Positions 5,671 through 63,286 of a DNA stretch of 64,000 nucleotides are shown one piece after another; the first letter of the stretch is position 1, and each line of letters begins with the position of its first letter. The stretch is taken from NCBI GenBank assembly GCA_002448475.1, contig DJYI01000126.1:64214-128213 (forward strand), in the 5' to 3' direction. The notes beneath the pieces are model-generated. The model did not search any database, was not told the DNA's origin, and saw only the letters and a list, made by a program, of their open reading frames with translations. The position numbers and the translations under genes are program-made. The stretch is from Verrucomicrobia bacterium UBA6982 (GTDB taxonomy: Bacteria > Verrucomicrobiota > Kiritimatiellia > RFP12 > UBA3636).

Positions 5671-7452
5671 CTACATCGCCTCTTCGGCGATCTGCTCGAT
5701 GCGGACCGGGTCGTCGCCCCTGAACTGATAGACGATCTGGTGCAGCGTCGTGCCGCGCGCGAGCGACGGCACGAATCGGTCGGCCCGGTATTTCTTGAGC
5801 TGGTCCAGTGCCTCGGCGTATTTCGCGGCGATTTCGGCGTCGGTCGCGTCGGCGGCGGAGTGTTTCAGTTCGATGAGGTAGCTGTGCTTCACGTCGCCGA
5901 AGTATGTGCGCTCCGGGAAGAGGGCGAAGTCGCAGTAGCCCCGAGAGAGTTCCATCTCCGGCCGCGCGAGATAGAAGTTGATGTGCCCGAACTCGCACTG
6001 CATGTAGCCCTGGATGCGGATCTCGCGGTCGATTCCCCCGCGGACCGGCTGCGTCGCCTTGAGGTCGGTCGCCAGGCGTTCCAGAAACGGCTTCCATTCG
6101 CCGCGATAGGCCATCGCGGAGGCAAGCTTGCTCCATGCAAGCCAGCTCGGGCGGCGGCCGACGTGGTAGGCGTCGCGCAGGTAGCCGAAAAGCTGCCTTT
6201 CGACGCAGGCGTTCGGGATTTTGAAGACGGTCTGCCCCTCTTCGCGGCCGCCCATCGACAAAATGCCATAGTAGAAGAAGAGAGAACGGAAGTTCTCTTC
6301 GTCTGCGATTTTGTCCGCCGGGAAGGAATCCACGAGGTCGAAGGAGATTTGTCCAGTGGCGGCCAGCTGCTCCGTGAGCGGAAGGACATCCTCGACGACG
6401 CCGGTGTCGTCGGCGTCCTCCCCGAATTTCGCGTGGAACTGCGCGTGCTGGATGTCCGCGATTGTTTCAAGCTTCTCGTAGTCGGTTGCGATGTTGCGGT
6501 CAACCATGTTCCTTGGCGGTTTCCCGGAAAAGACGAGGGATTTCAGATGGTAGAGGACCATGTCGGAATTGAAAACGGACTCCTCGCCGACCTTTTCCTC
6601 GGAGAAGCAATAACCGTCGTACCATGGCTTGAAGGCCGAAACCCATTTCTCGGCGGTTCCATCGAGATAGGCACCAGTGCCCTTGAAGTCGGAATAGAGT
6701 TGCAGGACTTCCGTCTCGGAGAAGCCGAGCATCGAATTGAAGTCCGGTTCCAGGGAAATATTCGAGGCAATGTTGAAGCCGCTCGTGAGGTCGTCCATCG
6801 TGACGGGCGAGACGCCAGTCATGTAGATGCGGTCGAACGCCGCCTTGAACGACTTGAACCACTCCCGGTAGAAGCCTTCGCCGTGCGTGACGCTCCGATA
6901 CGGTTCGTTGCCATCGGCCCGGAGCATTTGGTTCGTGAAGTTGTCGTATTCGTCCAGCATCAGGTAGAGGGGAAAGCCAACTTCCTTTGCCGTCTTGACC
7001 ATCATGTCAAACTTGTCCGCAGGGGCCCCTTTCGCGAATTCCGCGAGAAAAGCATCGCCGTATTTCGACCCGTGGCGCAACATGAATGAGTCGAGACACC
7101 GGCCGACATAGTTCTCGAAACGTTCTTGGAGCGTTCGTCCGATTCCCTTGTTCACCTCGGAAAAGTCCATGTAGAGGACCTGGTAGCGGTTTCGGTTCTC
7201 CGTTGGGTTCCTTGCGATTTCCAGGTCGCCGAAGAGTCTGTCGAAGTTGTCCTTCTCGGCGCTGTCGTAGTAGCAGCGGAGCATGCTGGCCATTAGCGAC
7301 TTGCCGAAGCGGCGCGGGCGCACGAGGAACAGGAAACGTCCAGCCTGCTCCAGAAGCGGGATGTAGCCCGTCTTGTCGATGTAATAGAGGTTTTCGTTGC
7401 GGATGGTCTTGAAGTCCGCGACGCCGTATGGAATTTTGAGGTTGTCTTTCAT
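5671..7452 (-). CDS. AAA-ATPase_like (PF09820-type) N-terminal domain plus PD-(D/E)XK nuclease-like (PDDEXK_9-type) C-terminal domain protein, 593 aa
   Basis: The N-terminus has the family hallmark RPRRFGKS and the C-terminus has GYCDFALF…YLIELKHSA. ATG at 7450-7452; a GGAG RBS lies 8 nt upstream. Confidence 0.85.
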   Translation of the reverse strand: MKDNLKIPYGVADFKTIRNENLYYIDKTGYIPLLEQAGRFLFLVRPRRFGKSLMASMLRCYYDSAEKDNFDRLFGDLEIARNPTENRNRYQVLYMDFSEVNKGIGRTLQERFENYVGRCLDSFMLRHGSKYGDAFLAEFAKGAPADKFDMMVKTAKEVGFPLYLMLDEYDNFTNQMLRADGNEPYRSVTHGEGFYREWFKSFKAAFDRIYMTGVSPVTMDDLTSGFNIASNISLEPDFNSMLGFSETEVLQLYSDFKGTGAYLDGTAEKWVSAFKPWYDGYCFSEEKVGEESVFNSDMVLYHLKSLVFSGKPPRNMVDRNIATDYEKLETIADIQHAQFHAKFGEDADDTGVVEDVLPLTEQLAATGQISFDLVDSFPADKIADEENFRSLFFYYGILSMGGREEGQTVFKIPNACVERQLFGYLRDAYHVGRRPSWLAWSKLASAMAYRGEWKPFLERLATDLKATQPVRGGIDREIRIQGYMQCEFGHINFYLARPEMELSRGYCDFALFPERTYFGDVKHSYLIELKHSAADATDAEIAAKYAEALDQLKKYRADRFVPSLARGTTLHQIVYQFRGDDPVRIEQIAEEAM

Positions 7453-7508: not shown

Positions 7509-7526
7509 GCGCGCGCCGAAGCGCCG

Positions 7527-7558
7527 GTTGAAAGGTTGAAAGGTTGAAAAGTTGAAAG
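7527..7558 (+). repeat. tandem 8-bp-period repeat GTTGAAAG x4 (site A), immediately upstream of the ATPase-gene promoter
   Basis: ccgGTTGAAAGGTTGAAAGGTTGAAAAGTTGAAAGggg. Related arrays occur at 35192-35224 and 45124-45147. Confidence 0.75.
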
Positions 7559-7688: not shown

Positions 7689-7748
7689 AAAAAAGCGGGC
7701 CGATTGTGTCATAGCCGCGCAGCGGCGTTCGATGACACATCGGCCCGC
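7689..7748 (-). terminator. rho-independent terminator for the Mla operon: 17-bp near-perfect inverted repeat (gcgggccgattgtgtcat / atgacacatcggcccgc), then TTTTTT on the minus strand
   Basis: + strand: aaaaaaGCGGGCCGATTGTGTCATagccgcgcagcggcgttcgATGACACATCGGCCCGC. On the minus strand the stem is followed by a T6 run. The arms contain the TTGTGTCAT motif. Confidence 0.55.
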
Positions 7749-7848: not shown

Positions 7849-8601
7849 TCACGCGCCCGACGGGCGGATGCCCTGGGCGTCGAGAAATGCGCGCGCCTCG
7901 GGGATGGTAGAGCGGCTGAACGAATCCGGCGGCTCTATGCACAGGACTCGACCGCGCGACAGCAGGGCAATGCGGGATGAAATCGCGAGCGCGCCCTGAA
8001 GGTCGTGCGTGACGACCACGGAAGTGATTCCGAGTCGCGCCGAAAGATCCGCGATCAACGCGTCGATGCGACGGCTCGTGACGGGGTCCAGGCCGCTCGT
8101 GGGCTCGTCGTAAAGGACGATTTCCGGCTGCGTGACGATGGCCCGCGCGAGTCCCGCGCGCTTCTGCATTCCGCCTGAAAGGTCCGCTGGATAGGCGGCT
8201 CCTTCTCCGGAAAGTCCCACCGCCTCAAGCGCTGCGGCAACCTTCTCGGCGATTTCGCGCTCGGTGAGATTCGTCTTTTCGCGCAGCGGAAGCGCCACGT
8301 TGTCCTCGACGTTCATCCATGCCAGAAGCGCCGCGCTCTGGAAGAGATACCCGAAGCGCGAACGGATGCGCGAAAGGTCTCGTCCGGACGCCTCGCTCAC
8401 GCAGTCGTCGCCGATCCACACGCGACCTGAAGTCGGAGTCAGCAGGCGGATCATGTGCTTGAGCGACACGCTCTTGCCCGTGCCGGAAGGGCCGACGATT
8501 GTGAATATCTCCCCTTTGTCGATTTCGTATGAAACGTCGTCCAGCACGCGTTTGCCGCCTGCGAACTCTTTCGTGACGTGCTCGAACCTGATCATTGACA
8601 T
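7849..8601 (-). CDS. mlaF: ABC transporter ATP-binding protein, MlaF family (phospholipid ABC transporter ATPase)
   Basis: MSMIRFEHVTKEFAGGKRVLDDVSYEIDKGEIFTIVGPSGTGKSVSLK…LSGGMQKRAGLARA…VLYDEPTSGLD: Walker A, signature and Walker B motifs, 250 aa. Confidence 0.85.
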   Translation of the reverse strand: MSMIRFEHVTKEFAGGKRVLDDVSYEIDKGEIFTIVGPSGTGKSVSLKHMIRLLTPTSGRVWIGDDCVSEASGRDLSRIRSRFGYLFQSAALLAWMNVEDNVALPLREKTNLTEREIAEKVAAALEAVGLSGEGAAYPADLSGGMQKRAGLARAIVTQPEIVLYDEPTSGLDPVTSRRIDALIADLSARLGITSVVVTHDLQGALAISSRIALLSRGRVLCIEPPDSFSRSTIPEARAFLDAQGIRPSGA

Positions 8602-8619
8602 ATCCGATGCCCTCCGCCC

Positions 8620-9432
8620 CTAGTAGAAAAGTCGCGTGACAAAATACCCGACAACAAGAATCATGAGAAAGTTGGAGACAACGCTGCGCCGCGTCGCGCG
8701 ACCTACTCCGACGGCTCCGTGCGTCGTGCGAAATCCCTCGTAGCACGACACAGTCACGATTATGAACCCGAATAGGAACGCCTTGAAAAGCCCAACCCAC
8801 AGGGCCTTGACGCTCGCGAAGTCCATGGCGTTGCGGAAATAGGTCTCCCACGGGACGGCAAGTTGCGTGTGGCTCACCAGCGCTCCGCCGAGAACCCCCA
8901 GAACGCACGTGTAGAAGGACATCATCGGCACGGCGATGGCCATCGCGGCCATTCGGGGCATGACGAGGAACCGCACGGGGTCGATGTCCATGATTTCCAG
9001 CGCCGCGATTTCCTCGTTCACCGTCATCGTGCCGATCTGCGCGGCCATGGCCGCCCCGACGCTTGCCGCAAGAACGAGGCCGGACATGAATGGGCCCATT
9101 TCGCGAAGCATCGAGGCCATGACCGCGGAACCGGTAAGTCCCTCCTGGTTGTAAACGCGAAGCTCAATGCCAATTTGCAACGCCAGAATCATTCCGATGA
9201 AAAATGCGACGACTGAGACGACCGGGACGCTCTTCACCGCGCAGACATAGAGTTGCCGCACGATTTCGGCTCGTGCGCGCGGCGCGAACGCATGGCGCAT
9301 TGCGGCGACTGAGGCGAAGCAAATCGTCGCCGCGCGGCCAGTCTCGGCGATGCAGGCGATGGTCCGCTGTCCGATGCGCTGCAAGGGGCCGGACGGCACT
9401 GGAAGAATTGGCGCTTCTCTTGTGATCGTCAT
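8620..9432 (-). CDS. mlaE: ABC transporter permease, MlaE family
   Basis: A multi-TM protein with MlaE-like motifs (…FFIGMILALQIGIELRVYNQEGLTGSAVMASMLREMGPFMSGLVLAASVGAAMAAQIGTMTVNEEIAALEIMDIDP…). I chose the ATG at 9432, 2 nt after the lpxC-family stop; the ORF-track start at 9480 would overlap. Confidence 0.85.
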   Translation of the reverse strand: MTITREAPILPVPSGPLQRIGQRTIACIAETGRAATICFASVAAMRHAFAPRARAEIVRQLYVCAVKSVPVVSVVAFFIGMILALQIGIELRVYNQEGLTGSAVMASMLREMGPFMSGLVLAASVGAAMAAQIGTMTVNEEIAALEIMDIDPVRFLVMPRMAAMAIAVPMMSFYTCVLGVLGGALVSHTQLAVPWETYFRNAMDFASVKALWVGLFKAFLFGFIIVTVSCYEGFRTTHGAVGVGRATRRSVVSNFLMILVVGYFVTRLFY

Positions 9433-9434
9433 AG

Positions 9435-10574
9435 TCAGGAATGGGGAACGAGGTGACGCGTCAGCACGATTTTCGAGCACATCCGCACGTCCTGCGTGTG
9501 TCCGGCGCGGAACGAGACGATCGTTCCGGCGAAGCGATGGGGCCCCATGAGCGACACCGCCGCGAGAAGGTCGAGCGTCGCGCGGTGCCAGACTGGTTCG
9601 AGGGAGCGTCCGTTGAACACGAGCTTCGGCTCGTTCAGGTAGCGGCGGCGGCCGTGGATGAGGATGTTCGCCTTGGTGTAGCCGAGATTTCGCGTTTCCG
9701 CAAAAAGCTTTCCGATGGTGCGAGCGTAGTAATACTCCTTGAGCGGGGCGTTTGTTCTGGCCTCCGCGCCGATTCGGAAGGTCTCGGGCGTGACGTCAAA
9801 CACGATGCGCTGCCTGCCGATGACGCTTGCCCAGTCGATGGCGCAGTCAACCCGCAGTCCAAGCTGTCCCGGCCGAGCCGGCAGGAAGGTGAGGAAGTCA
9901 CCGCGAGCGCCGCCGAACGTCAGCGGCTCGTCAACGGTGACGAAGGTCGCGGGAGTTGCCGTTTCGGCTATGCCGACTTTCTCGATCGCCTCGTAGATGT
10001 CCAGATTGCCGCGGTCGAAAAGAGGCGGATCTCCGGAGGCGACGGAGACTTCAACGTCGTCGAGCGCCAGGCCGGTCTTGAACGCGACTATGTGTTCGAC
10101 CATGCGCAGGTAGTTGTGCGGAGACCCGGAGCGGAGGACTATGTTGCGGGCGGTGGTCCAGACGCTTCGCACGTCAACGGCGATGGGGAACTGGTCCGGC
10201 ATGTCGGCGCGATCTATCCACCAGCCGGGGTCGCGCGACGGACCGAATGTGAGGGTCGAGCGTTCTCGTCCGCTGAACGTGCCGGGACCGGAAACGGATG
10301 TGGTGCCGCGAAGCGTCGTGCGGTACATCGGGAACGGATAAGGGCCGTTGTTGAGGCGCACAAGATCGACTGGCTGATCGAAAAAGCGGCGGCGGGCGGC
10401 CTCCACGGCTTCGGCGTCGCCAATGAGCAGTCTTCCGACAGGATAGTCGGCAGGGCGGGGGAGGGGAAAGTCGTTGAGGTTGGTGTCCATGTCAGTTGGA
10501 GTGGCGGGATTCTGTCTGTCTCCGTTTTGGCAGGGAGTTTTTGTTGAGGAAGGAGCCGTGGAACCGAGACGCAT
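9435..10574 (-). CDS. lpxC: UDP-3-O-acyl-N-acetylglucosamine deacetylase (LpxC) family protein with a ~55-75 aa N-terminal extension
   Basis: The LpxC zinc/catalytic motifs align: MVEHIV (E78/H79), WHRATLDLLAAVSLMGPH (H238/D242 region), FRAGHTQD (H265). The N-terminal TTLRGTTSVSGPGTFSG resembles RTLK…GVGLHSG. The first ~70 residues (MRLGSTAPSSTK…MDTNLNDFPLPRPADYPVG…) have no LpxC counterpart. Confidence 0.7.
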   Translation of the reverse strand: MRLGSTAPSSTKTPCQNGDRQNPATPTDMDTNLNDFPLPRPADYPVGRLLIGDAEAVEAARRRFFDQPVDLVRLNNGPYPFPMYRTTLRGTTSVSGPGTFSGRERSTLTFGPSRDPGWWIDRADMPDQFPIAVDVRSVWTTARNIVLRSGSPHNYLRMVEHIVAFKTGLALDDVEVSVASGDPPLFDRGNLDIYEAIEKVGIAETATPATFVTVDEPLTFGGARGDFLTFLPARPGQLGLRVDCAIDWASVIGRQRIVFDVTPETFRIGAEARTNAPLKEYYYARTIGKLFAETRNLGYTKANILIHGRRRYLNEPKLVFNGRSLEPVWHRATLDLLAAVSLMGPHRFAGTIVSFRAGHTQDVRMCSKIVLTRHLVPHS

Positions 10575-10584
10575 GACGCGGCGC

Positions 10585-11616
10585 TCAGCGAATCAGCAGC
10601 GAAACAGCGAGGGCCGCCGCAGCCGCCGCGAGGACTGCGAGCGCGACGCGCCTGGCGCGCGCGGTGCTGAGCGGGGCCATGAGGCGCGCAAGGCGCCTTG
10701 GGGCGGCCGCCGCTCCCTGCGGAGCCAGCGTCGAGGAAACGGAGAGAGGGTCCGGGGCGCGCCCGCGCGGAAACTTTCCGGCGGTGACCGCTTCGACGGC
10801 CGCCGAGACGTCGTCCCAGGACTTGAACCGGTCCTCCGGGCGCTTGGCAAGCAGGCGGCGCAGGAGGGCGACGAAAGGCAGCGAGACGAGCGACGTGGAC
10901 GGCAGGCCGCATTCGGAGGAGACCTGAAGCGGGGGTATCTGAGTGTCTGGAACTCCGTCGAAAAGGCGCTTGCCGGACACGGCGTGGAAAAGCGTCGCGC
11001 CTAGCGAATACATGTCGGCGCGAGCGTCGAGATCCGCATCGCCGCGCGCCTGCTCCGGCGACATGTAGGCGGGAGTGCCGCAGATTTCAAATTCCTCGTC
11101 GGCGCCGGCGTCACCCTCGGACTGAGAAGTCTTGAGAGATCGGCTCAACCCGAAATCGGCGATCTTGACTTCACCCTTGTCTGACAGAAGGATGTTTTCC
11201 GGCTTGAGGTCCAGGTGGACAAGGCGTTGTTTTTTCCACGCGCATCCAAGAGTCTCCGCCACGGACGACGCCAGCGCCAGGGCGTCGGACTCCGACAGGC
11301 GGCCGTTCTCTCGCAGCACGGCGGCGAGGGAACGCCCCTCCACGCATTCCATGGCTATGCAGAACCTGCCACCGGCCTTGAAAACGTCGAATATCTTGAC
11401 AAGACCCGGATGCGAAATCGACGCCGCTGCGCGCGCCTCGTCGCGGAAGCGGTCAACGTCCGCCTGCGTCTTGGCAAATTCCGGCGAAAGAACCTTTAGC
11501 GCGGCCACTCGATCGACGGCGATCTGTCTGGCTCGCCAAACCGTGGCCATGCCGCCGGATCCGAGTTTGTCCAGGCATACCCATCCGGGAATGACCGGAG
11601 GCGTCGAATCAGCCAT
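10585..11616 (-). CDS. Hanks-type Ser/Thr protein kinase with a C-terminal single TM tail anchor
   Basis: GSGGMATVWRA…VAALKV (Gly loop/VAIK), HLDLKPENILL (catalytic loop), DFG, GTPAYMSPE (APE). The C-terminus RRVALAVLAAAAAALAVSLLIR is a TM tail. ATG at 11614-11616 with a purine-rich RBS. Confidence 0.85.
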   Translation of the reverse strand: MADSTPPVIPGWVCLDKLGSGGMATVWRARQIAVDRVAALKVLSPEFAKTQADVDRFRDEARAAASISHPGLVKIFDVFKAGGRFCIAMECVEGRSLAAVLRENGRLSESDALALASSVAETLGCAWKKQRLVHLDLKPENILLSDKGEVKIADFGLSRSLKTSQSEGDAGADEEFEICGTPAYMSPEQARGDADLDARADMYSLGATLFHAVSGKRLFDGVPDTQIPPLQVSSECGLPSTSLVSLPFVALLRRLLAKRPEDRFKSWDDVSAAVEAVTAGKFPRGRAPDPLSVSSTLAPQGAAAAPRRLARLMAPLSTARARRVALAVLAAAAAALAVSLLIR

Positions 11617-12292
11617 TGCCGCGGCCCTTCCCCCCGACCTTGCCCAAGCCGCCGCATTTGCGGCACGGGACGGCGCGGGCGCCTCCGCATTCTGGGCAGG
11701 GCGCGGCCACCGGGGAGTCCTTTGTTCCGCCGCATATCGGGCATTTTTTCTCGGCCGTCTCGCCAGACGGGTGCGTCCGCAGGAGCGTGTCCTCGATCCG
11801 CATCATGGAGCCGCCTTTGGGGGCGGGCCTTGGGCCGGAAAGAGATGGTTTTCCTCCGGAACCGTCGGAAGCGCCCTTCTTCGGGGAAGACCCGCCAGAG
11901 TAGTCGTGAAACGCGCGGTTGGGGCAAAGGACTCGACCGAAGCCCTTGCAGTTGCGACACGCGAATTTCCCCGTTCCACCGCATGCCTTGCAAATTGCCT
12001 GAGGCACCGGGGCCGGAGGAGACTTTTCAGCCTCCGGCTCGGCGGCGGGCGGAGCGCCGCGAACCTTGTCCGCCTCGCGCGGGGCCGGGGGCGGAGGCGG
12101 AATCGGGCGCGCATTTTCCGCCTCCGTCGTGGCGGCTGCGCCGCAGGCCGGGCAGAAGCGGGCGGCTGGGGGGAGTTCGCGCCCGCAGTCGCGGCAAAGG
12201 GCCACAGTCTCGTCCGCGCCGGAGGCGAGGCACAAGGCGGCGGCGAAAAGCGCAAAGCGGACAGCCGTGGAAAAAGACAGGGCGCGTCGCAT
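11609..12292 (-). CDS. secreted Cys-rich zinc-finger protein (N-terminal double zinc ribbon plus two DnaJ-type CxxCxGxG modules, Pro-rich linker)
   Basis: ATG at 12290-12292 with a GGAGG RBS (the ORF-track start at 12313 is TTG). Signal peptide MRRALSFSTAVRFALFAAALCLASG. Motifs: CRDCGRE…CPACG, CKACGGTGKFACRNCKGFGRVLC, CPICGGT…CPECGGARAVPCRKCGGLGKV. Confidence 0.6.
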   Translation of the reverse strand: MRRALSFSTAVRFALFAAALCLASGADETVALCRDCGRELPPAARFCPACGAAATTEAENARPIPPPPPAPREADKVRGAPPAAEPEAEKSPPAPVPQAICKACGGTGKFACRNCKGFGRVLCPNRAFHDYSGGSSPKKGASDGSGGKPSLSGPRPAPKGGSMMRIEDTLLRTHPSGETAEKKCPICGGTKDSPVAAPCPECGGARAVPCRKCGGLGKVGGKGRGNG

Positions 12293-12309
12293 CGTCCGCC
12301 TCCAGAAGA

Positions 12310-14103
12310 TCAAGTGCGCGGGGCCTTGCGGCGGTTGAGACGCGTTTCCTTCGAGACGGGCGGCTCGAACCAGCTTTCGGGAGAAGCGTCCTGAGACGCC
12401 GTTGGCAGAGGCACCGGATCGCGCGTGACGCCAACGGCGCTCTGATACAGGCGATAGCCTGGGCCGGTCGAATGCGGGAGCAGATCCACCATGTCCGGTC
12501 CGCGCCAGATGCCGTAGAAGTCGAGGGAATTGACGTTCTCGAGGACGTGTTTCTGGCTTGCGGCGTGCCTGAACACCGCGACCGCGCCCTTTTTGATCTT
12601 CGGGAAGAGCATGTGGTCCTCCCGCCGCTCAATGCCTATCGGCCGCCCATCGACAGTTCCCTCGTAGGGCGCGCCCATCCACGGAAACACGCGGAGATTG
12701 AGTCGGCAGGTGCGGCGCATCTGGATGCGCATGAAGAAGTCGTTGGGATAGCCGATTTCGACGCGAAGAGAATCCGTTTCGCAGTTAACCGGGAAATTCA
12801 CCGTCACCAGATCCTTCGTGTCCTCCACGGTGTTGCGCCAGCAGCGGAACATGGCGCGCGGGGCCTCCGCCGAGCCGCGTGCGGAGACGAGGCGGGGAGA
12901 GGCGAGGAAAACGAACGAGGGCGAAGTCGCGCCGCAGAACGCGCCGGGAAGCTTTTCGGCAATGCCGACGTAGGTGCGGCGGGGGGTGTCCTTCGGGCGA
13001 GGGGAGGGGATGTCGGAACCGGACGGCACGAACGCGGAGTCGGGAATCTGAAGCTGCGAAAGCTGATTGCGCCAAAGCTTGTTCGCGTCCTCCCAGTATT
13101 CCGGGAAATTGCATTCGACAAGATCCAGGGCGCACTCCAGAAGCGCGGCGGTGCAGGCGGCGTCGCCGCGAAGGTCGCCGGGCAGCTGCCACGCCATGAA
13201 GTCCGGAACCCAGCCGAACGACGACGTGTGGCGGCGGATGAAGTCGTAAAGAGCCTTTGCGCGGGCTACGTATCCGTCGCGCGAAAGAATTCGTCCGAGG
13301 CGGGCCAGGCCGCCGGCGGCGACGAGCGCGGAATGGACTTCGCCCTGAAACTCGGACTTTGCGCCGAACGGATGCGACACGCCGATGGCGTAGTTGCCGA
13401 GACCCATCGCAAGGTCAAGCGCCGCCTCGTCGCCAGTCACGGAGTATAGCGACATCAGCGGATTGAGAAGGGAAAGAATGCGCAGCAGCCCGTCCGAATA
13501 GCCCGTGGCGAGGGCCGGATCGGGCCCATGACCGCGCACGATCACGTCGGAGCGGAACGCGTATGTCGGCTCGTCAAGCGGGATCGGGCCGCCTGGGGTG
13601 AGACGCTGCGTGAGGGACATCACCATGCCGCGAAGGCCGGCAACGAGACCGGAGGCGCGAGTCCGCGCCTCGGAGTCCGACGGATCGGACTCGATCATGC
13701 GGACGAGCGCCGAGAGAACCGGCCGCATCTCCGTGACAACGCAGTAGTCAAATGGCGTGTCCGACCACGGTCGGCGCGGGGGGAAGCGAAGGCCGGTGTC
13801 CTTGTCCCAGCAGGCTGGATCCAGGACGATGGCGCGAAGCGCGTCCTCAACGTCCTTGCCATCGTCCGTTCCGAGCATCGCGCGGGCGCACGAAATGCCC
13901 TCATACCAAGTGGCGGCGTTTTCGGCGTCGTCCTGGCGGGAGTGTTCAGCGAAAGGCGTGGTGATCCAGGGCTGGACCGTGCCATACGGCAGGCAACCGA
14001 GCTTTCGGTCAACCATGCCGGTCAGGAAGCGCAACGACAACGCCGCGTTGCGGAGCGGGTCGAAAGTGCGAAATGAGGCTTTGGGGCGGCGGGCTGGAGG
14101 CAT
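12310..14103 (-). CDS. hypothetical cytoplasmic protein (~598 aa), possibly an (alpha/alpha)-toroid glycoside-hydrolase-like fold
   Basis: Long minus ORF with no signal peptide. The first ATG is at 14101-14103 (the ORF-track start at 14118 is TTG). It is 17 nt upstream of the Cys-rich gene and is the first gene of the operon. No confident family assignment was possible from the sequence alone. Confidence 0.55.
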   Translation of the reverse strand: MPPARRPKASFRTFDPLRNAALSLRFLTGMVDRKLGCLPYGTVQPWITTPFAEHSRQDDAENAATWYEGISCARAMLGTDDGKDVEDALRAIVLDPACWDKDTGLRFPPRRPWSDTPFDYCVVTEMRPVLSALVRMIESDPSDSEARTRASGLVAGLRGMVMSLTQRLTPGGPIPLDEPTYAFRSDVIVRGHGPDPALATGYSDGLLRILSLLNPLMSLYSVTGDEAALDLAMGLGNYAIGVSHPFGAKSEFQGEVHSALVAAGGLARLGRILSRDGYVARAKALYDFIRRHTSSFGWVPDFMAWQLPGDLRGDAACTAALLECALDLVECNFPEYWEDANKLWRNQLSQLQIPDSAFVPSGSDIPSPRPKDTPRRTYVGIAEKLPGAFCGATSPSFVFLASPRLVSARGSAEAPRAMFRCWRNTVEDTKDLVTVNFPVNCETDSLRVEIGYPNDFFMRIQMRRTCRLNLRVFPWMGAPYEGTVDGRPIGIERREDHMLFPKIKKGAVAVFRHAASQKHVLENVNSLDFYGIWRGPDMVDLLPHSTGPGYRLYQSAVGVTRDPVPLPTASQDASPESWFEPPVSKETRLNRRKAPRT

Positions 14104-14388
14104 GACTGCAAACGCCAATTCGGGCGGTGCCGGAATTCTCTCACAAAGTCTATTTCATGGCAATCAAAAAAACATTCTATGTCGCATAATATGGATTCTG
14201 TAAACAATTTGGCAGCCGTCCCGCTGGAAAACCCGCGGTTTTGACAAGACATTCGATTGTTCAGGCAAAACGAGGATTTCGCCCATGAAAAGAAACAGCC
14301 GACGACTCAAACCCCCTAGGGGTATTGTTCAAAACAAAAGGTTCCTTTATCGTCGCCCGCACTTCACGCTCACAGCAGGAACAAAAAA

Positions 14389-18767: not shown

Positions 18768-19991
18768 ATTTCGCGTCGCGCCAACGCCGTCGGCTGCGCC
18801 GTTGCGGCTGCGCTGTCGGCATTCGTCCCGGCGGACGCCGTGGCGGCCACGCTTGTCGCCACGCTCGTGCCCGGACGGACATCGCTCTGCGTCGGGGAAA
18901 AGGCGACGATCGTTCTCGACCTTGATCTTGAGGGCGCGGAGCTTTACACCGAGCGGCCAGATCCTTTTGACGCTTTTTTCGGACGATCATCGCCGAGGTC
19001 GGATGCCCTTTCCCTTTCCGGGATTCCCGATGCACGAGACATAGTGGGTTTCGGCCAATTCGAGCGGGCGAACGCGCCACGCGCCGGAGTCATGCGCTTT
19101 GTCTCCGAAGTCGAGGCGATTGCTCCCGGCGACATCTCGTTCTCCCCCGTCATTTCCGGAACCGTTGCGCGAACCGTCGCCACGCGCGGTTTCGTGAGGC
19201 AGATTTCCACCGAGCCGTTTTCCGCCGCCGCCGGCTCCATCAGTCTGCGTGTGTCGGAAGTGCCGAAGGAAGGTCGGCCGGCCGACTTCTGCGGTGCTGT
19301 CGGAGACGCGCTGCAGCTCGCCGCAACTCTTGAACCCGCAGAATGCGCGCTTGGCGATCTCGTGACGCTTCGCTGGACGATTACCGGTCCCGGGGCAGGA
19401 CTTGCCGCTCCCGTTGCCTGGACCCCCGGAGACGGATTCAAGTCATATCCCCCACGCGAGGGAGAGCACGATGAAAACTCCTTTTCCGCCACTCAGATCG
19501 TGATTCCAGTGGACGAATCCGCATCGAACGCCGCCCCGTTCTCCGTGTCGTGGTTCGACCCGGCCGCAGGCAGTTTCCGAACGCGGTCGGCCGGTCCCTG
19601 GTCTCTGCGTTTTCGCGAACGCCCGGAACCGGAGGAGGTCCAGGCCGTTACGACTGGCGATGAAGTCGCTTCAAACTCCCCTGCCCTCCCCCGCTCTCAC
19701 GGCGCGCCCAACGCCTCTTCCGACGGAGCGCCAGACGACGCGATCGAAACTGCTGCGTCAGATTCCACCAAGGCGCCCCCCAAAGTCGGCGCTTCCGTTG
19801 GCGCGGAGTTTCAGACTACCGAATCTCTTCCAGCTCGTTTTGCGCCCTGGCCAAAGTCTCGAGCCCTTTACCAAATCCCCGCCGGAACGTCCGTGAAGGT
19901 GCGTGAGATTTCCGAAAACGGCTGGCTGCGCGTCTTGTTGCCAAGCGGCGCCACGGGCTGGATCAAGGCTCCTGACACCAGCAAGAACTAG
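18768..19991 (+). CDS. secreted hypothetical protein with a C-terminal bacterial SH3 domain (start uncertain)
   Basis: C-terminus …ALYQIPAGTSVKVREISENGWLRVLLPSGATGWIKAP (SH3_3-like). A clean signal peptide ISRRANAVGCAVAAALSAFVPADAVA has no in-frame ATG after the queA stop; candidate starts are ATT 18768, CTG 18813 and GTG 18840. Confidence 0.5.
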   Translation: MSRRANAVGCAVAAALSAFVPADAVAATLVATLVPGRTSLCVGEKATIVLDLDLEGAELYTERPDPFDAFFGRSSPRSDALSLSGIPDARDIVGFGQFERANAPRAGVMRFVSEVEAIAPGDISFSPVISGTVARTVATRGFVRQISTEPFSAAAGSISLRVSEVPKEGRPADFCGAVGDALQLAATLEPAECALGDLVTLRWTITGPGAGLAAPVAWTPGDGFKSYPPREGEHDENSFSATQIVIPVDESASNAAPFSVSWFDPAAGSFRTRSAGPWSLRFRERPEPEEVQAVTTGDEVASNSPALPRSHGAPNASSDGAPDDAIETAASDSTKAPPKVGASVGAEFQTTESLPARFAPWPKSRALYQIPAGTSVKVREISENGWLRVLLPSGATGWIKAPDTSKN

Positions 19992-21454
19992 CGCCCTTCG
20001 TCATTCTTCGGCGCGAGCATGGCGGCAAATGGCAGCCCTGGCGCCTTGAGCAATTTCAGGACGCGCCGAACTTCGGGCGAGCCGGCATCGGTGCAGTCGA
20101 TGCGCAGCGCCACAGCCCCGGTTTCTCCTATTGCCGCCGCGACTTCAGGTGCCGGAAACGTTTCGCGCTCCATGCGTTGACACTCTCGGCACCAATCGGC
20201 GGAAAGTTCAAGAAGAATGGGGGAATCGAGAGCGGTCGCCACCGCGATTGCAGTTTGCTCGTCGATGAGCCATTCTACGCTTCCGCTTGCGGCGTCCGCT
20301 GGCGTTGTCGAGTCAGCGGAGCCATGCCCGGCACCCTTGCGAAATGGGCCGCCAATTGCCTCAGCGAACTGCCAGGCGGCAAGCGCGAAGAAAATCGCGG
20401 CGTATGCCCATTTGACGCGAACCATCCATCTCCCCGGTCGCGGCAGCGATGCCATTCCGGCACCGAGAGCCGGCCAGGGAAGTCCCATTCCGACGCCGAC
20501 GAGAAGCGGGACAAGCGCGCCGGCGACTGGTCGTCCTCCGGCCGAAAACTCCGCCGCAAGAACAAGGGCCGAGGCCAGAACCGGAGCCACGCAGGCTCCG
20601 CCGAGCGCTGCGGAAATGGCGCCGAGAGCAAATGCGCGGGCGAGATGAATCCTGGGGGCGGCATTTCCTGCCAATTGCGCGGAGTTGCTCCGGAAACGTC
20701 CGGCAAGACGCGAAAGATCGATGGTGAACACGTCCAGCGATGCAAGTGCGAAAAATGCAAACGCCGCGCCTATCGCGACATGAAACCACGGCATTCCCTG
20801 CCATGCGCCGAACATTCGTCCGCCGCGAACCGCCATCAGGCCGAGAGCGCCGAACGCGACCGCCATGCCAGCGCCGAACGCGACGCCGGAGGCCGCGCCG
20901 CGCCGCCGCGCCGCCGCGCTGGAAATGGACGGCGTGGCTGCGGAGGCCGAAGCAGCCGCGCTGCCGGCGCCTAGCATGGCAAGAAATACCGGAACGAGCG
21001 GCAACACGCACGGAGTAAGGTTCAGTGCCGCCCCGGCGCAAAGCAGGACCACGACGAGAAGCGGCCACCCGCCGATGCGCCTGGCGCGCAAGAGGATGTC
21101 TGACTGTTCGGCGTGTTCTCCCGACGCGCCGTCGCCTGCTTCGCCTCTGATGAATGCGGCGAATGCCGACGCATCCATGAAACCCGGGGCGACACGCAGC
21201 ACTTCGCAAGATTCAAGGCCGTTGACGTATTCCGTCGCACTGCCGGCGGTTGCCGACGAAGTCGCACCGGTGTCGCGCGCGATGGCCGAGGCGACGTCCG
21301 CCGGAAGATAGCAGACGCCATCGACGCAGATTGGCTCCGATGATTCCGGAACTGGCGAGGCTGGAGACGCCTCGTCAGCCGCGGACGGAGAGCCCGCGAC
21401 AAAAACCGCAATGGCGGCGAAGGCGACAGTGGCGCGAATTGACAGGCTTTTCAT
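19988..21454 (-). CDS. dsbD: thiol:disulfide interchange protein DsbD family (CcdA-like TM core plus C-terminal thioredoxin-like domain)
   Basis: …LNLTPCVLPLVPVFLA… (CcdA/DsbD TM motif) and C-terminal …ELSADWCRECQRME… (WCxxC thioredoxin). Signal peptide MKSLSIRATVAFAAIAVFVAG. Confidence 0.8.
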   Translation of the reverse strand: MKSLSIRATVAFAAIAVFVAGSPSAADEASPASPVPESSEPICVDGVCYLPADVASAIARDTGATSSATAGSATEYVNGLESCEVLRVAPGFMDASAFAAFIRGEAGDGASGEHAEQSDILLRARRIGGWPLLVVVLLCAGAALNLTPCVLPLVPVFLAMLGAGSAAASASAATPSISSAAARRRGAASGVAFGAGMAVAFGALGLMAVRGGRMFGAWQGMPWFHVAIGAAFAFFALASLDVFTIDLSRLAGRFRSNSAQLAGNAAPRIHLARAFALGAISAALGGACVAPVLASALVLAAEFSAGGRPVAGALVPLLVGVGMGLPWPALGAGMASLPRPGRWMVRVKWAYAAIFFALAAWQFAEAIGGPFRKGAGHGSADSTTPADAASGSVEWLIDEQTAIAVATALDSPILLELSADWCRECQRMERETFPAPEVAAAIGETGAVALRIDCTDAGSPEVRRVLKLLKAPGLPFAAMLAPKNDEGR

Positions 21455-29056: not shown

Positions 29057-29144
29057 GGAGAGGTGTCTGAGTGGTCGAAGGTGCCTGACTCGAAATCAGG
29101 TGTGCCGCAAGGTACCGGGGGTTCGAATCCCTCCCTCTCCGCCA
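29057..29144 (+). tRNA. tRNA-Ser (anticodon CGA), type II with a long variable arm, CCA encoded
   Basis: GGAGAGGTGTCTGAGTGGTCGAAGGTGCCTGACTCGAAATCAGG…GGTTCGAATCCCTCCCTCTCCGCCA. The acceptor stem GGAGAGG/CCTCTCC pairs, the anticodon loop is CUCGAAA, and there is a T-loop GGTTCGAATCC. Confidence 0.9.
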
Positions 29145-47518: not shown

Positions 47519-48571
47519 ATGCAATTCATCGCCCTGGATCGGCCCTTGGCCGTCTTTGACATCGAGTCCACCGGACTCAATCCGAGAACAGACCGCATTG
47601 TCGAGCTCGCGGTAGTTCGCATCCAGCCCGGCCGTGACGGCGCAAGGGAGACGAAAACCTGGTTGCTGAATCCGACCATTCCGATTCCGGTCGAGACGAC
47701 GGCCATCCACGGCATAACCAACGAAATGGTGTCGTCGGCTCCGACTTTCGCGGACAAGGCCGCCGAGATACTGGAATTTTTCAGCGGATGCGACCTCGGC
47801 GGCTTCGGACTCTCAAAACTCGACATTCCAATTCTTGAAGAGGAGTTCGAGCGCTGCGGGATGCACTTCAACGCCGCGGGTCGCAGAATGTTCGACGCCT
47901 TGCGCATTTACCACAAGCGCGAACCGCGCGACCTTCAGGCCGCGCTGCGGTTTTTCTGCGGCGAGGAGCCGGCCGACTCCCACGGGGCCGAGGTGGACGC
48001 CCTTTCGGCCCTGCGCGTTCTGGAAGGCGAGTTCGCCAAATATCCGGACCTGCCGACATCGCCTGACGAGCTGGACGCCTATCTGAACGAGAGAGACCCG
48101 TCTTTCATTGATCGTGAAGGCCGGTTCCGCACAGGCGAGGACGGTGAAATCATCGTGAACTTCGGGCGGAAAAAGGGCGAGAAACTCCGCGATCTTGCGG
48201 CCGCGGAGCCGTCGTGGCTCACATGGATTCTTCACGGCGATTTCCCGCGTGACACGAAGAAGGTCGCCCGCGACGCCCTTGCCAAATGGGGACCCAGGCC
48301 CGCAAAGAAGCAAGGTTCCGGGAATCAGATCGCCCAGAAGGCGGGACCGGGCACTTCGTCTTCCAAGCCGCAAAAAATTCGGAATCCCGCCCCTGAAAAT
48401 CAGGACACTTCCACGCAACAGCCCCCGCCGCCGCCTCCGCCAACGCCGCCACAATTCGCGGCGCTCGCCGCCGGGCTCGACGCCATTCTGTCCGATCAGC
48501 GTCCATCAGCCGACGGGCTCCGCGAACACAACCACAGGCACAACCACCGCCACGAACACAGAAGGCCATGA
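47519..48571 (+). CDS. DnaQ-like 3'-5' exonuclease (DEDDh) with a low-complexity Pro/His-rich C-terminal tail
   Basis: …LAVFDIESTGLNP… (Exo I DxE), …HGAEVDAL… (Exo III H…D), and a C-terminal …QQPPPPPPPTPPQF…HNHRHNHRHEHRRP tail. Confidence 0.75.
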   Translation: MQFIALDRPLAVFDIESTGLNPRTDRIVELAVVRIQPGRDGARETKTWLLNPTIPIPVETTAIHGITNEMVSSAPTFADKAAEILEFFSGCDLGGFGLSKLDIPILEEEFERCGMHFNAAGRRMFDALRIYHKREPRDLQAALRFFCGEEPADSHGAEVDALSALRVLEGEFAKYPDLPTSPDELDAYLNERDPSFIDREGRFRTGEDGEIIVNFGRKKGEKLRDLAAAEPSWLTWILHGDFPRDTKKVARDALAKWGPRPAKKQGSGNQIAQKAGPGTSSSKPQKIRNPAPENQDTSTQQPPPPPPPTPPQFAALAAGLDAILSDQRPSADGLREHNHRHNHRHEHRRP

Positions 48572-49989
48572 ACTCATTCCGTCTCCGCATCGAGTCCGGC
48601 CCTTCCGCCGGCACCGTCCGCGACATCCCCCCCTCGGGGCTTTCAGTCGGCCGTTCGGCTCGCAACGACCTTGCGATTTCCGACGCAATGCTTTCGCGCA
48701 GCCACTGCAAGTTCTACGTGGAGGGCGGTTCGCTTTACGTTTCCGATCTGGCCACCGTCAACGGAACTTTCGTCGATGGCTCGCAGATCGAAACCGATTC
48801 GCCGCTGCATCCCGGAGCGGAGGTCAAAATCGGCGAGACGGTTCTTCGCATCTCCAATGACAACGGCGAATTTCCGCCAACTCCGGAACCCGCCGCCGCT
48901 CTGGACGCGGTTCCAGCGCCTGACACCACCTCCACCGATGGCGCGGAGGCACGCGGCGCCGGCAATCATGCTGACGCGAAAAGCGCAGAATCGTCATCTG
49001 GCGCTCCGGATTTGTTCGGGGCGTCCCCGCAGCCCAACCTGTTTCCGCCGCCCGCACCGGCCCCGGCGGGGGAGATGCGGCGCAACCTTGTCGCGAACGT
49101 CGCGATCATTTGCGCAGCGGTTGTCCTTCTGGCCGGCGCCGCCAAGATATTCCTTTCCCCGCGCGCGTCCGATCCCCTCCCCACCCCCGAGCCGGCTCCC
49201 ACGGAGCCTCCGATTTCATTCTCCTACGTCAAGCTGGAGGGGTCCGAGTCCAACGTGTTTCGCTACGAAATGGAACTCTCGCCGGACGGCACGCTCGAAG
49301 TCGCGATCGACGACGCGGCGCAGGGGCGTCATGTTCGCAAGCGCGCCGACTCGCCTCTTCCCGATGAACGACGCGCCGAACTTCTGCGCCTGTTTGACGA
49401 GGCGTCGTTTTCATCGCTTGTGACTGAGGACGAGGGCCGCCCCAGGCGCAACGAGTGGCGCGAAATCCGGATTTCCGCGCTTGCGCATGGTCGCCCCAAC
49501 ACGGTTGTCGTTCGCAATCGCGAGGAACCCGCCGCCCTCTCGGCGCTTCGCGATGCCCTGGAGGACTTCGGCCGCAATGAACTCGGCCTCTGGGCCTTCG
49601 CCGTGGATCGTGACACTCTCGTTTCCGGGGCCGAGGAGGACTTCGAGCGCGCCGAGCGCCTCCACGACGAACGCGAGGTTCTGCCAGGCAACCTCTACAA
49701 TGCGGTCAGGATCTACGACTCGTGCATCGCCCGCCTAGAGACGCTTGACCCGCGGCCGGAGCTCTTCGACATCGCCTCCGCCGCTCGTTCGGCCGCCGCC
49801 AAGGAACTCGACGCCCGCGTGGAGGCGCTCAACTGGCGCGCCGAACACGCCGCCAACATGAAGGACTGGGCCGAAGCCGCGGCGGCGCTTCGCGACCTGG
49901 CCGAGGTCGTGCCCGACCGCTCGGATCCGCGCAACGAAGCTGCCCGACGCCGACTTCTCGACGCCGAATCGCGCATTGGTCGCAAATGA
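48568..49989 (+). CDS. FHA-domain membrane protein (N-terminal FHA, one TM helix, C-terminal soluble domain)
   Basis: …LSVGRSARNDLAISDAMLSRSHCKFYVEGGSLYVSDLATVNGTFVDG… (FHA). TM helix NLVANVAIICAAVVLLAGAA. The ATG overlaps the exonuclease stop. Confidence 0.75.
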   Translation: MNSFRLRIESGPSAGTVRDIPPSGLSVGRSARNDLAISDAMLSRSHCKFYVEGGSLYVSDLATVNGTFVDGSQIETDSPLHPGAEVKIGETVLRISNDNGEFPPTPEPAAALDAVPAPDTTSTDGAEARGAGNHADAKSAESSSGAPDLFGASPQPNLFPPPAPAPAGEMRRNLVANVAIICAAVVLLAGAAKIFLSPRASDPLPTPEPAPTEPPISFSYVKLEGSESNVFRYEMELSPDGTLEVAIDDAAQGRHVRKRADSPLPDERRAELLRLFDEASFSSLVTEDEGRPRRNEWREIRISALAHGRPNTVVVRNREEPAALSALRDALEDFGRNELGLWAFAVDRDTLVSGAEEDFERAERLHDEREVLPGNLYNAVRIYDSCIARLETLDPRPELFDIASAARSAAAKELDARVEALNWRAEHAANMKDWAEAAAALRDLAEVVPDRSDPRNEAARRRLLDAESRIGRK

Positions 49990-50005
49990 CATGGAGGAAA
50001 TGGAC

Positions 50006-51394
50006 ATGCACCGCAATTCAATTCGCCGCACAATCATTTTCCCCGCACTAGCGCTTGTCTGCTCCTTTTTAGCGCCCATGGCGGCACCTGCCTCCGAACG
50101 GGGGGATCAGACCGGCTCCGGCGAGGTTCCGACTCTGCTGTCATCATCCATCCAGGGTGCGAGCGTCGCCGTTGACGGCATTGACCGCGGAACAACACCG
50201 GTGGAGGTTCCGCTCCGCCCAGGTCGCCACTTCGCCTGTCTGCGGCCTTCCGGAGCGCCAGCCACATACGTCGAGTTCGAGACCGGAACAGAACGCGCGG
50301 AAGTAACGTTTGAAGTTCCCGCGCCGACATGCGCGGTCCTTGTCTCGGCAGAACCCGCGGGCGCGTCCGTCACGCTCGATGGCGCTTCCGTTGGATCTTC
50401 CCCGCTGCTTCTGCCGCAGGTGGCGGAGGGGGATCATGAACTGCTGATCGAAGCACCGGGATGCAAGCCCCAGCGCATTCCGCTAAAGCTGCGCGCCCCC
50501 GAGCCCGCGCTTTTGCGCGTGGCCCTGGCATCGACCTCCGCCGCGCTCTCGATAACAAGCGAACCCTCCGGCGCCGAAGTTTCCGTGAACGGCGTGCCGC
50601 GCGGCCGCGCGCCGATTGTCGTGCCGGGGGTTCCGGAAGGCACGGCGGTGGTGGAGGCGTCTCTCGACGGCTATGAACCCTGGCGCTTTGAGTTGCAGGT
50701 TCGCTCAGGAGACTCCGCCCCCGTGAACGCCGTGCTGAGGCGCAAGCCCGCCACGCTTTCCGTGACTTCGATCCCGACTGGCGCGCGCATTTACGTGGAT
50801 GATGCGTTCAGAGGCGTCGCCCCTGTTTCAGTGCCTGATCTTCCTCCAGGAGCCCACCGCGTTCGCGCGGAGCTGCCGGGACACGACCCTATGGCGCGAA
50901 CCGTTCCGCTTGAGCCGGGGGCAATCGCCGCCGAGGAGTTCCGTCTGCGCGCCAACACCGGAACATTGCGGGTTTCAACCGCGCCGGCGGGCGTTTCCGT
51001 TCAAATCGACGGCAAGGAGTTCGGAGTCACGTCCGCTCCGGACGGCGAATCCGATTCCGTGTCCTCGGAACTTGTCATAGCAGCAGTGCCGACAGGGCAT
51101 CGCCGCGTTTCGTTTGTTCGTCGCGGCTGGATGACGGTCGAGCGCGATGCCGACGTCGAGCGCGACGGAACGCTGTCCCTTGGCCTTGTCAAGCTCGAGC
51201 GCGACCTCACGCCTGACATGGCCGTCACGACAAAGAACGGATCCGTCGTGCGCGGCGTGTTCCTTGAAAAAGCCGGCGGATTCTACAGGCTCGAAACGCA
51301 GCGCGGCGTCATCCGCGCGATTCCGTTCAAGGACATCGAGCGCGTCCAGTTGCTCCGCAGCGACGGCAACCATCTCGACGCTGAAACGCCGTGA
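50006..51394 (+). CDS. secreted PEGA-domain repeat protein
   Basis: GGAGG RBS 8 nt before the ATG at 50006. Signal peptide MHRNSIRRTIIFPALALVCSFLAPMAAPA. There are at least 5 PEGA-like modules (…SEPAGASVTLDG…, …SEPSGAEVSVNG…, …SIPTGARIYVDD…, …TAPAGVSVQIDG…). Confidence 0.7.
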   Translation: MHRNSIRRTIIFPALALVCSFLAPMAAPASERGDQTGSGEVPTLLSSSIQGASVAVDGIDRGTTPVEVPLRPGRHFACLRPSGAPATYVEFETGTERAEVTFEVPAPTCAVLVSAEPAGASVTLDGASVGSSPLLLPQVAEGDHELLIEAPGCKPQRIPLKLRAPEPALLRVALASTSAALSITSEPSGAEVSVNGVPRGRAPIVVPGVPEGTAVVEASLDGYEPWRFELQVRSGDSAPVNAVLRRKPATLSVTSIPTGARIYVDDAFRGVAPVSVPDLPPGAHRVRAELPGHDPMARTVPLEPGAIAAEEFRLRANTGTLRVSTAPAGVSVQIDGKEFGVTSAPDGESDSVSSELVIAAVPTGHRRVSFVRRGWMTVERDADVERDGTLSLGLVKLERDLTPDMAVTTKNGSVVRGVFLEKAGGFYRLETQRGVIRAIPFKDIERVQLLRSDGNHLDAETP

Positions 51395-63209: not shown

Positions 63210-63286
63210 TGGTGCGTCTGGCGGGGATCGAACCCACAACCTTCAGCTCCGGAGGCTGACGCTCTGTCCAATTGAGCTACAGACGC
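63210..63286 (-). tRNA. tRNA-Arg (anticodon CCG), CCA encoded
   Basis: Minus strand: GCGTCTGTAGCTCAATTGGACAGAGCGTCAGCCTCCGGAGCTGAAGGTTGTGGGTTCGATCCCCGCCAGACGCACCA. The acceptor GCGTCTG/CAGACGC pairs, the anticodon loop is CUCCGGA, and the T-loop is GGTTCGATCC. Confidence 0.85.

Follow-up and report, generated by a model that had tools for sequence, protein, structure and literature searches.

The 64,000-nucleotide stretch of Verrucomicrobia bacterium UBA6982 analysed here (assembly GCA_002448475.1, contig DJYI01000126.1, positions 64,214 to 128,213; hereafter the window) carries a cluster of six co-directional open reading frames (ORFs) on its minus strand (7849-14118), which encode, from 5' to 3', a GH127/GH146-fold protein, a Cys-rich zinc-ribbon protein, a Hanks-type Ser/Thr kinase, a divergent LpxC, and the MlaE- and MlaF-like parts of a lipid transporter. 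The first-pass annotation had placed all six ORFs correctly and had read them as a dedicated phospho-signalling module for outer-membrane lipids. A comparison of gene orders in the window and about 90 other loci supports a different explanation, and we consider it rather probable that the cluster is a mosaic, a species-level transcription unit made from three independent units, without dedicated regulation of LpxC or Mla by the kinase. The evidence points to an ordinary, evolutionarily shallow gene juxtaposition. A rearrangement in the window species would have joined three independently conserved units: a labile block of a cytoplasmic GH127-fold protein without an active site, a secreted zinc-ribbon protein, and a membrane-anchored Hanks kinase; the divergent lpxC of Kiritimatiellia/Lentisphaerota type that belongs to this lineage; and mlaE-mlaF, which in relatives is part of a (lipoprotein)-mlaE-mlaF-mlaD operon and here lies 2 nt behind lpxC. 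The kinase block would then be a separate labile unit with an envelope flavour rather than a dedicated LpxC/Mla regulator, and its adjacency to lpxC would be inherited and accidental, not selected.

This explanation is supported by the fact that the gene order does not recur as a whole outside the species. The six cluster proteins were searched by tblastn against loci of 78 other species, each taken from a species-representative genome that encodes this LpxC subfamily and extending up to 10 kb to either side where the contig allowed. Our own ORF calling could not be trusted where GC reached 68-72%, and gene order was therefore judged from tblastn and database gene calls. The complete six-gene order was found only on independently assembled contigs of the same species (L085-L090, 99-100% identity), which include the UBA metagenome-assembled genome (MAG) GCA_002373635.1. 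None of the 78 other loci carries mlaEF 3' of lpxC by tblastn, and one (L050) carries mlaEF 4 kb 5' of it. The kinase stands directly 5' of lpxC in three other species, twice in the order first gene, zinc-ribbon gene, kinase, lpxC (L006 and L010) and once, on a short contig, as kinase-lpxC (L079), and in L005 the first gene adjoins lpxC without the other two. A six-gene order confined to one species and a kinase beside lpxC in 3 of 78 others argue against a dedicated module. Most often, in 19 of 80 loci, lpxC has a thioredoxin-like gene as direct upstream neighbour, with a Mur ligase and ComEC ahead of it; tig-clpP-clpX is the next most frequent context (11 loci), and other neighbours are a DnaQ-like exonuclease, ValRS, RuvA, ScpA, and MutS. 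In the loci examined, lpxC was never clustered with other lpx genes. Elsewhere in the window, an RNase_T/DnaQ-like exonuclease gene lies at 47519-48571 (+); in eight other species its homologue is the next gene 3' of lpxC, which illustrates the reshuffling of lpxC neighbours. At 19988-21454 (-), 6 kb upstream of the cluster, a transmembrane thiol-disulfide protein is encoded that is DsbD-like and contains a thioredoxin-like domain.

Several observations weigh against the mosaic and would be better explained by a functional coupling, in which the block acts as an envelope-sensing module that controls LpxC and, via co-expression, Mla, by phosphorylation or complex formation, in a role like that of FtsH, LapB, and YejM for E. 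coli LpxC. The kinase-lpxC pair occurs in four species (the window species, L006, L010, and L079) that form one clade, with L079 basal, in a neighbour-joining tree of LpxC; it spans this clade down to 71% LpxC identity, with outer flanks that are not conserved. In 1.39 Mb of related DNA, Hanks kinases are otherwise rare, only orthologues of the cluster kinase and one degenerate kinase having been found, and therefore the adjacency would be old and retained beyond what random synteny leads one to expect. The first-gene family stands recurrently beside envelope genes, namely lpxC in four loci and, for distant homologues, murD-LysM-ftsW in three, and the first gene persists beside lpxC in L005 where the zinc-ribbon and kinase genes are gone. 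Genes of the mla locus follow lpxC in two sister species: mlaEF in the window, and in L006 a gene for a 500-aa lipoprotein rich in WP repeats whose homologues, at 30% identity, lie directly 5' of mlaE in L095 and L050; it is possible that the ancestor of the window species and L006 already had an older lpxC-(lipoprotein)-mlaEF arrangement. The tight spacing and single terminator of the cluster also favour coupling.

Nevertheless, we consider such a coupling possible but rather unlikely. No kinase lies near lpxC in 75 of the 78 other species, most members of the same clade included, and block genes occur without lpxC in L093 (all three), L102 (first gene and kinase), and L103 (first gene and zinc-ribbon gene). 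The LpxC protein has no kinase-specific sequence feature, the linkage to mlaEF is found in one species only, the extracytoplasmic domain seen in the kinase orthologues is gone from the window kinase, and a search of the literature library returned nothing connecting LpxC with Hanks-type kinases, nor LpxC with Kiritimatiella. Because the four species form one clade and Hanks kinases are rare in related DNA, the kinase-lpxC adjacency is not a chance re-occurrence; it was probably ancestral to the clade and then lost in most of its members. It counts, however, as a single arrangement passed on by descent, not as several independent pieces of evidence. Control of LpxC by the kinase block, if real, would be the first instance of phosphorylation regulating the step that commits to lipid A synthesis, and it would offer a view into the envelope homeostasis of poorly studied gut bacteria of the Planctomycetes-Verrucomicrobia-Chlamydiae (PVC) group. 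A looser cell-envelope theme of the cluster is possible.

The second unit of the mosaic is most likely, as judged from the sequence, the working LpxC (UDP-3-O-acyl-N-acetylglucosamine deacetylase) of this lineage, which would carry out the usual deacetylation that commits to lipid A synthesis. Profile searches of Pfam and NCBIfam bore out the family calls first made by eye for the kinase, LpxC, MlaE, and the ABC ATPase, and the LpxC-family protein reached 109.9 bits against PF03331 (cut-off 27), with residues 86-369 covering profile positions 2-266 of 268. In E. coli LpxC the zinc ligands are His79, His238, and Asp242, the general base is Glu78, and the catalytic residue is His265, with Asp246 as its partner. 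Aligned to P. aeruginosa LpxC, the window protein has the general-base Glu and first zinc His in 'MVEH' (E77-H78), the second zinc His and the Asp ligand in 'WHRxTLD' (H237/D241), and the catalytic His in 'AGH' (H264), and these motifs are invariant in 20 subfamily members (alignment A1). Its AlphaFold2 (AF2) model has a predicted local distance difference test (pLDDT) score of 84, and the top 50 matches listed from the Protein Data Bank (PDB) are all LpxCs (E down to 2e-20, target-normalised template modelling (TM) score 0.74-0.83, root-mean-square deviation about 3 A), the LapB-LpxC complex 8v24 among them. Like the LpxCs of known structure from E. coli, P. aeruginosa, and A. aeolicus, it is classed as a single-domain protein, of similar core length, and it shares with them the two-domain LpxC fold and the E-H, H-x3-D, and G-H motifs.

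In other respects the window protein departs from known LpxCs. It is only about 20% identical to solved LpxCs (18-21%), its 71 bits against the LpxC equivalog TIGR00325 (NCBIfam) fall under the cut-off of 187.25, an exhaustive search showed a drop from 201 to 81 bits between its subfamily and canonical LpxCs, and K239 and D246 of E. coli are replaced by Arg and Ala ('LDLLAA') across the whole subfamily. Neither other lpx genes nor fabZ lie clustered with the gene, and the end of the alignment suggests that the protein lacks a C-terminal tail comparable to the FtsH-degron-like one of E. coli LpxC. These distances in identity and score, the loss of the D246 equivalent, an extra N-terminal sub-domain, and the lack of clustering with lpx genes would suit a paralogue that deacetylates another acylated or N-acetylated sugar, possibly together with the GH127-like protein, with a canonical lpxC elsewhere in the genome. 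We regard this as very unlikely in view of the invariant zinc ligands, general-base Glu, and catalytic His, the complete two-domain fold with LpxCs as all top PDB matches, and the distribution of the subfamily. In a scan with one genome per species it was encoded in 397 Kiritimatiellia species genomes at 55-88% identity, in housekeeping contexts; the best 120 database matches are 58-99% identical and mostly 338-360 aa long, and several matches of the subfamily are labelled LpxC from Kiritimatiellae by NCBI and JGI. Beyond the subfamily, the protein is closest to LpxCs from other bacteria of the PVC group, the sole named cluster among the nearest canonical matches looked up being from Phycisphaerales. 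No second LpxC-like gene was seen in the 64 kb of genome covered, and a cultured Kiritimatiella is Gram-negative and carries genes of lipopolysaccharide synthesis (PMC5148204).

The first-pass annotation had also pointed to an N-terminal extension of LpxC and proposed it as the target of the kinase. About 55 extra residues (YPxGRxLxGD...DQPVD) do exist, but they are conserved in every subfamily member whatever its gene context, including deep members of 36-45% identity (one annotated as LpxC in a Lentisphaerota MAG), and they are modelled by AF2 with high confidence as a small beta-alpha-beta unit that known LpxCs lack. The kinase-linked LpxCs of L010 and L079 begin at MHEYPIGR and MNIPDYYLGR, with no added tail. 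Because the extension is conserved subfamily-wide and folded, and the kinase-linked proteins have no extra tail, we rejected it as a kinase-specific target. The 28 further residues of the longest lpxC ORF lack conservation, and translation probably does not include them. Kiritimatiellia and at least one MAG labelled Lentisphaerota have an LpxC subfamily of their own, marked by a folded add-on at the N-terminus and missed by standard equivalog models.

The protein of the first gene, initially listed as a hypothetical protein of about 600 aa, indeed has no Pfam or NCBIfam match over its longest ORF (12310-14118), PF07944 included, and no signal peptide, but its fold could be assigned. The AF2 model (pLDDT 88, predicted TM score 0.91) matched GH127/GH146 enzymes over the full length in Foldseek (E = 2.5e-16 to 1e-12, about 600 aligned columns), with an (alpha/alpha)6 barrel and a beta-sandwich as in the beta-L-arabinofuranosidases HypBA1, BT3674, and BT0349. 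The 36 homologue clusters contain named members from two Kiritimatiellae MAGs and one Clostridiales MAG, and 7 of 23 aligned homologues weakly matched PF07944, the GH127 catalytic domain. GH127 enzymes have a Zn(Cys)3-Glu site with Cys417 as nucleophile (PMC8106489). The corresponding 'CETCC' and 'GCC' motifs are kept in more distant members (P0141, P0142, P0153-P0155). In the window protein and its close relatives they are replaced by 'GDAAC' and 'ARG', and this close subfamily has thereby lost the nucleophilic Cys as well as two or three of four Zn-binding residues. Since these residues are replaced, the protein is most likely not a GH127-type glycosidase. It differs from GH127/GH146 enzymes also in its surroundings, which are envelope and kinase genes and not carbohydrate-utilisation genes, and in an invariant basic C-terminal tail of 12 residues, KETRLNRRKAPR (about 12313-12350, -), which lies in a disordered region, occurs in all subfamily members whatever their context, and is absent from members with the GH127 catalytic cysteines. 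The conserved Thr of this KETRL tail was considered as a phospho-acceptor and discarded, as it is Met in the kinase-linked orthologue of L093 and Ala in two others.

Judged by gene order, the genes of the GH127-like protein, the zinc-ribbon protein, and the kinase form a loosely conserved block. All three stand together in the window, L006, L010, L093, and L099, the first gene is followed by the kinase alone in L102, by the zinc-ribbon gene alone in L103 and L098, by lpxC in L005, and by murD(-LysM-ftsW) in L091, L092, and L106. In about 11 informative loci, lpxC follows genes of the block four times. The first gene belongs to a GH127-fold family that is lineage-restricted, has no catalytic cysteines left, and stands recurrently beside envelope-synthesis genes and the kinase/zinc-ribbon pair. 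A 690-aa Pkinase-domain protein, likely a pseudokinase, is encoded at L092:2391-4463 (-), 3.5 kb from the homologue of the first-gene protein (hyp602) that precedes murD-LysM-ftsW. We tried it as a deeper link and dismissed it, since it is degenerate (HRN, NFN), lies beside a polytopic membrane protein, and does not represent the same module.

The second protein of the block was rightly described as a secreted Cys-rich zinc-finger protein. One hydrophobic segment at the N-terminus, preceded by four Arg, is followed by a zinc ribbon (Zn_Ribbon_1, 27.3 bits vs cut-off 25), a Pro-rich linker, and DnaJ-like CxxCxGxG repeats, with seven CxxC motifs in total; the DnaJ_CXXCXGXG profile itself scored 15.2 against a cut-off of 32.7 (E = 0.026), the spacing being visible by eye. 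Its orthologues in L006 and L093 are built alike, with a signal-like N-terminus, a single zinc ribbon, and a number of CxxCxGxG units. The protein is predicted to be secreted or N-terminally anchored, and by the positive-inside rule it would face the periplasm. A membrane-anchored CxxC zinc-binding protein close to or acting on LpxC recalls the FtsH-LapB(YciM)-YejM system of E. coli in concept only, and this resemblance is not evidence; the zinc-ribbon protein is predicted to be periplasmic, TPR repeats are absent from it, and no homology to LapB could be detected.

A kinase, an (alpha/alpha)6-barrel protein, and an adjoining Cys-rich protein might also suggest a lanthipeptide-like modification, in which the first two act on the third as substrate, and class III/IV lanthionine synthetase models do match the kinase weakly in their kinase portions. 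These matches are generic Pkinase homology far under the cut-offs (80.7 vs 650 and 38.3 vs 575), a lyase domain is absent, the cysteines are paired zinc-ribbon/DnaJ-type CxxC motifs in a secreted protein of 227-430 aa, and the barrel is that of GH127/GH146 over its full length, beta-sandwich included, and not LanC. We regard this reading as extremely improbable and rejected it because of the full-length GH127-like barrel and the generic kinase matches.

The kinase matches PF00069 (Pkinase) with 157.7 bits and has all catalytic motifs (GSGGMATV, VAALK, HLDLKPEN, DFG, SPE), and it is of the non-RD type because HRD reads HLD. Its start at 11616 must be right, because the shorter start of the gene callers removes the Gly-rich loop. 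It is tail-anchored, as had been noted, since its sole hydrophobic segment is formed by the C-terminal 20 residues. In the orthologues of L006 and L093 the transmembrane segment is followed by 115-150 extracytoplasmic residues, whereas the window kinase ends right after this segment (10585-10650, -; compare L003:8654-9973 and L093:11087-12823), and a deletion beside lpxC seems to have removed its putative sensor part. With the PknB/StkP/PrkC class it shares the membrane anchor, the eukaryotic-like catalytic motifs, and the position beside envelope-synthesis genes; it differs from this class in the lack of PASTA or another extracellular sensor, in the non-RD motif, and in its partners, a GH127-like pseudo-enzyme and a secreted zinc-ribbon protein. 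FHA domains read phospho-threonine, and at 48568-51394 (+) a gene for a 473-aa FHA-domain protein (48568-49989) precedes, with overlap, one for a 472-aa PEGA-domain protein. Because of this property, and because the cluster kinase is the only Hanks kinase in the 64-kb window, the pair is an alternative candidate for a partner or target of the kinase.

We speculate that the pseudo-enzyme with its KETRLNRRKAPR tail, the periplasmic zinc-ribbon protein, and the kinase could form a new trans-envelope module of Kiritimatiellia that tunes envelope biogenesis and, in the clade of the window species, acts on LpxC, but we think this unlikely. Proteolytic control of LpxC by FtsH/LapB is known from Proteobacteria, and such a module would instead place lipid A synthesis under Ser/Thr phosphorylation. 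Each enzyme family of the cluster is already known, and its arrangement is a new but shallow variant of an ordinary envelope-gene cluster. More original are an LpxC subfamily with an N-terminal extension, a GH127-fold family that is catalytically dead and carries an invariant tail, and the recurrent pairing of the latter with a kinase and a periplasmic zinc-ribbon protein.

The third unit of the mosaic, mlaE-mlaF, would supply the inner-membrane core of an MCE-type lipid transporter, with MlaD encoded elsewhere or lost. MlaE scored 232.9 bits against PF02405 and 212.6 against TIGR00056 (cut-off 212.2). The ATPase matched ABC_tran (104.7 bits), and its best NCBIfam match was MlaF NF008809 (178 bits vs cut-off 441), with other ABC ATPase models nearly equal. 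MlaE orthologues of 269-270 aa are widespread in Kiritimatiellia, and in three relatives (L094-L096, MlaE identity 82, 76, and 69%) the order is mlaE-mlaF-mlaD, behind unrelated upstream genes and without lpxC. The two genes are adjacent and in the usual order, as in MlaFEDB of Proteobacteria and TGD1-3 of chloroplasts, but no MlaD (MCE) gene follows mlaF. A tblastn search with three Kiritimatiellia MlaDs gave nothing below E = 0.9 in the cluster or the whole 64-kb window, and the MlaDs of relatives had no match in the same-species contigs. MlaC, MlaA, and MlaB were not recognised among the ORFs scanned near the cluster, for which no dedicated search was made; the absence of MlaD and MlaC from the cluster agrees with the first description. 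Since MlaD was not found with mlaEF here but follows mlaF in relatives, mlaEF has been separated from mlaD in the window species. An ORF after mlaF in L050 was tried as MlaD and proved to be a spurious antisense ORF. The WP-repeat lipoprotein gene found 5' of mlaE in L095 and L050 is also missing from the cluster. This lipoprotein has about 470-530 aa, a lipobox, many WP[LF] repeats, and no Pfam match (L095:6380-7972, L050:2506-3924, L003:11101-12603), and it may be a lineage-specific Mla partner.

Co-transcription of the six genes in the window species is plausible. One mRNA would run from a promoter near 14140-14215 to the terminator behind mlaF (Table 1), whose hairpin folds at -48.7 kcal/mol (z = -6.24; 0 of 200 shuffles fold equally well). 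No minus-strand terminator-like site was found inside the cluster, so the early description of a single strong terminator stands. Start codons were chosen from homologues and from database gene calls on same-species contigs, and the intergenic gaps vary because of this choice. With supported starts, 17 nt separate the first gene from the zinc-ribbon gene, the latter overlaps the kinase gene by 8 nt, and the further gaps are 94 nt (kinase-lpxC), 2 nt (from the lpxC stop codon to the mlaE ATG), and 18 nt (mlaE-mlaF). The kinase-lpxC gap is 10 nt only with the unconserved ATG 10574.

Table 1 Features of the six-gene cluster and its flanking signals in the window, in order of transcription
Feature	Position	Strand	Remarks
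Two promoter-like matches (sigma-70-like consensus)	14215-14186, 14163-14135	-	AT-richer divergent intergenic region 5' of first gene
GH127/GH146-fold protein, 597 aa	12310..14103	-	ATG 14103; longest ORF from TTG 14118
Cys-rich zinc-ribbon protein, 227 aa	11609..12292	-	ATG 12292; longest ORF from TTG 12313
Hanks-type Ser/Thr kinase, 343 aa	10585..11616	-	Pkinase profile, catalytic motifs
Divergent LpxC, 351 aa	9435..10490	-	ATG 10490 (M29); longest ORF from ATG 10574
MlaE-family ABC permease, 270 aa	8620..9432	-	ATG 9432; longest ORF 8620-9480
MlaF-like ABC ATPase, 250 aa	7849..8601	-	ABC_tran profile
Predicted intrinsic terminator, long GC-rich hairpin and U6	7689..7748	-	Folding energy vs shuffles

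The window has a GC content of about 64% and is most closely related to MAGs of uncultured Kiritimatiellia from rumen and gut. An Rfam search found no RNA element in the cluster, and the sole matches in the window were two tRNA genes at 29057-29141 (+) and 63213-63286 (-). Beyond the mlaF terminator and before the downstream genes lies a gene for a predicted protein with AAA-ATPase_like and PDDEXK_9 nuclease domains (5671-7452, -), in a region of lower GC (0.58). This gene is strain-variable, being present in the window and L088 and not in L087, L089, and L090, where an oxaloacetate decarboxylase gamma gene directly follows mlaF, and a homologous gene lies near mlaE in L094. Between the terminator and the start of the AAA-ATPase-like gene, the tandem repeat CTTTCAAC occurs in about four copies (about 7520-7555, -).

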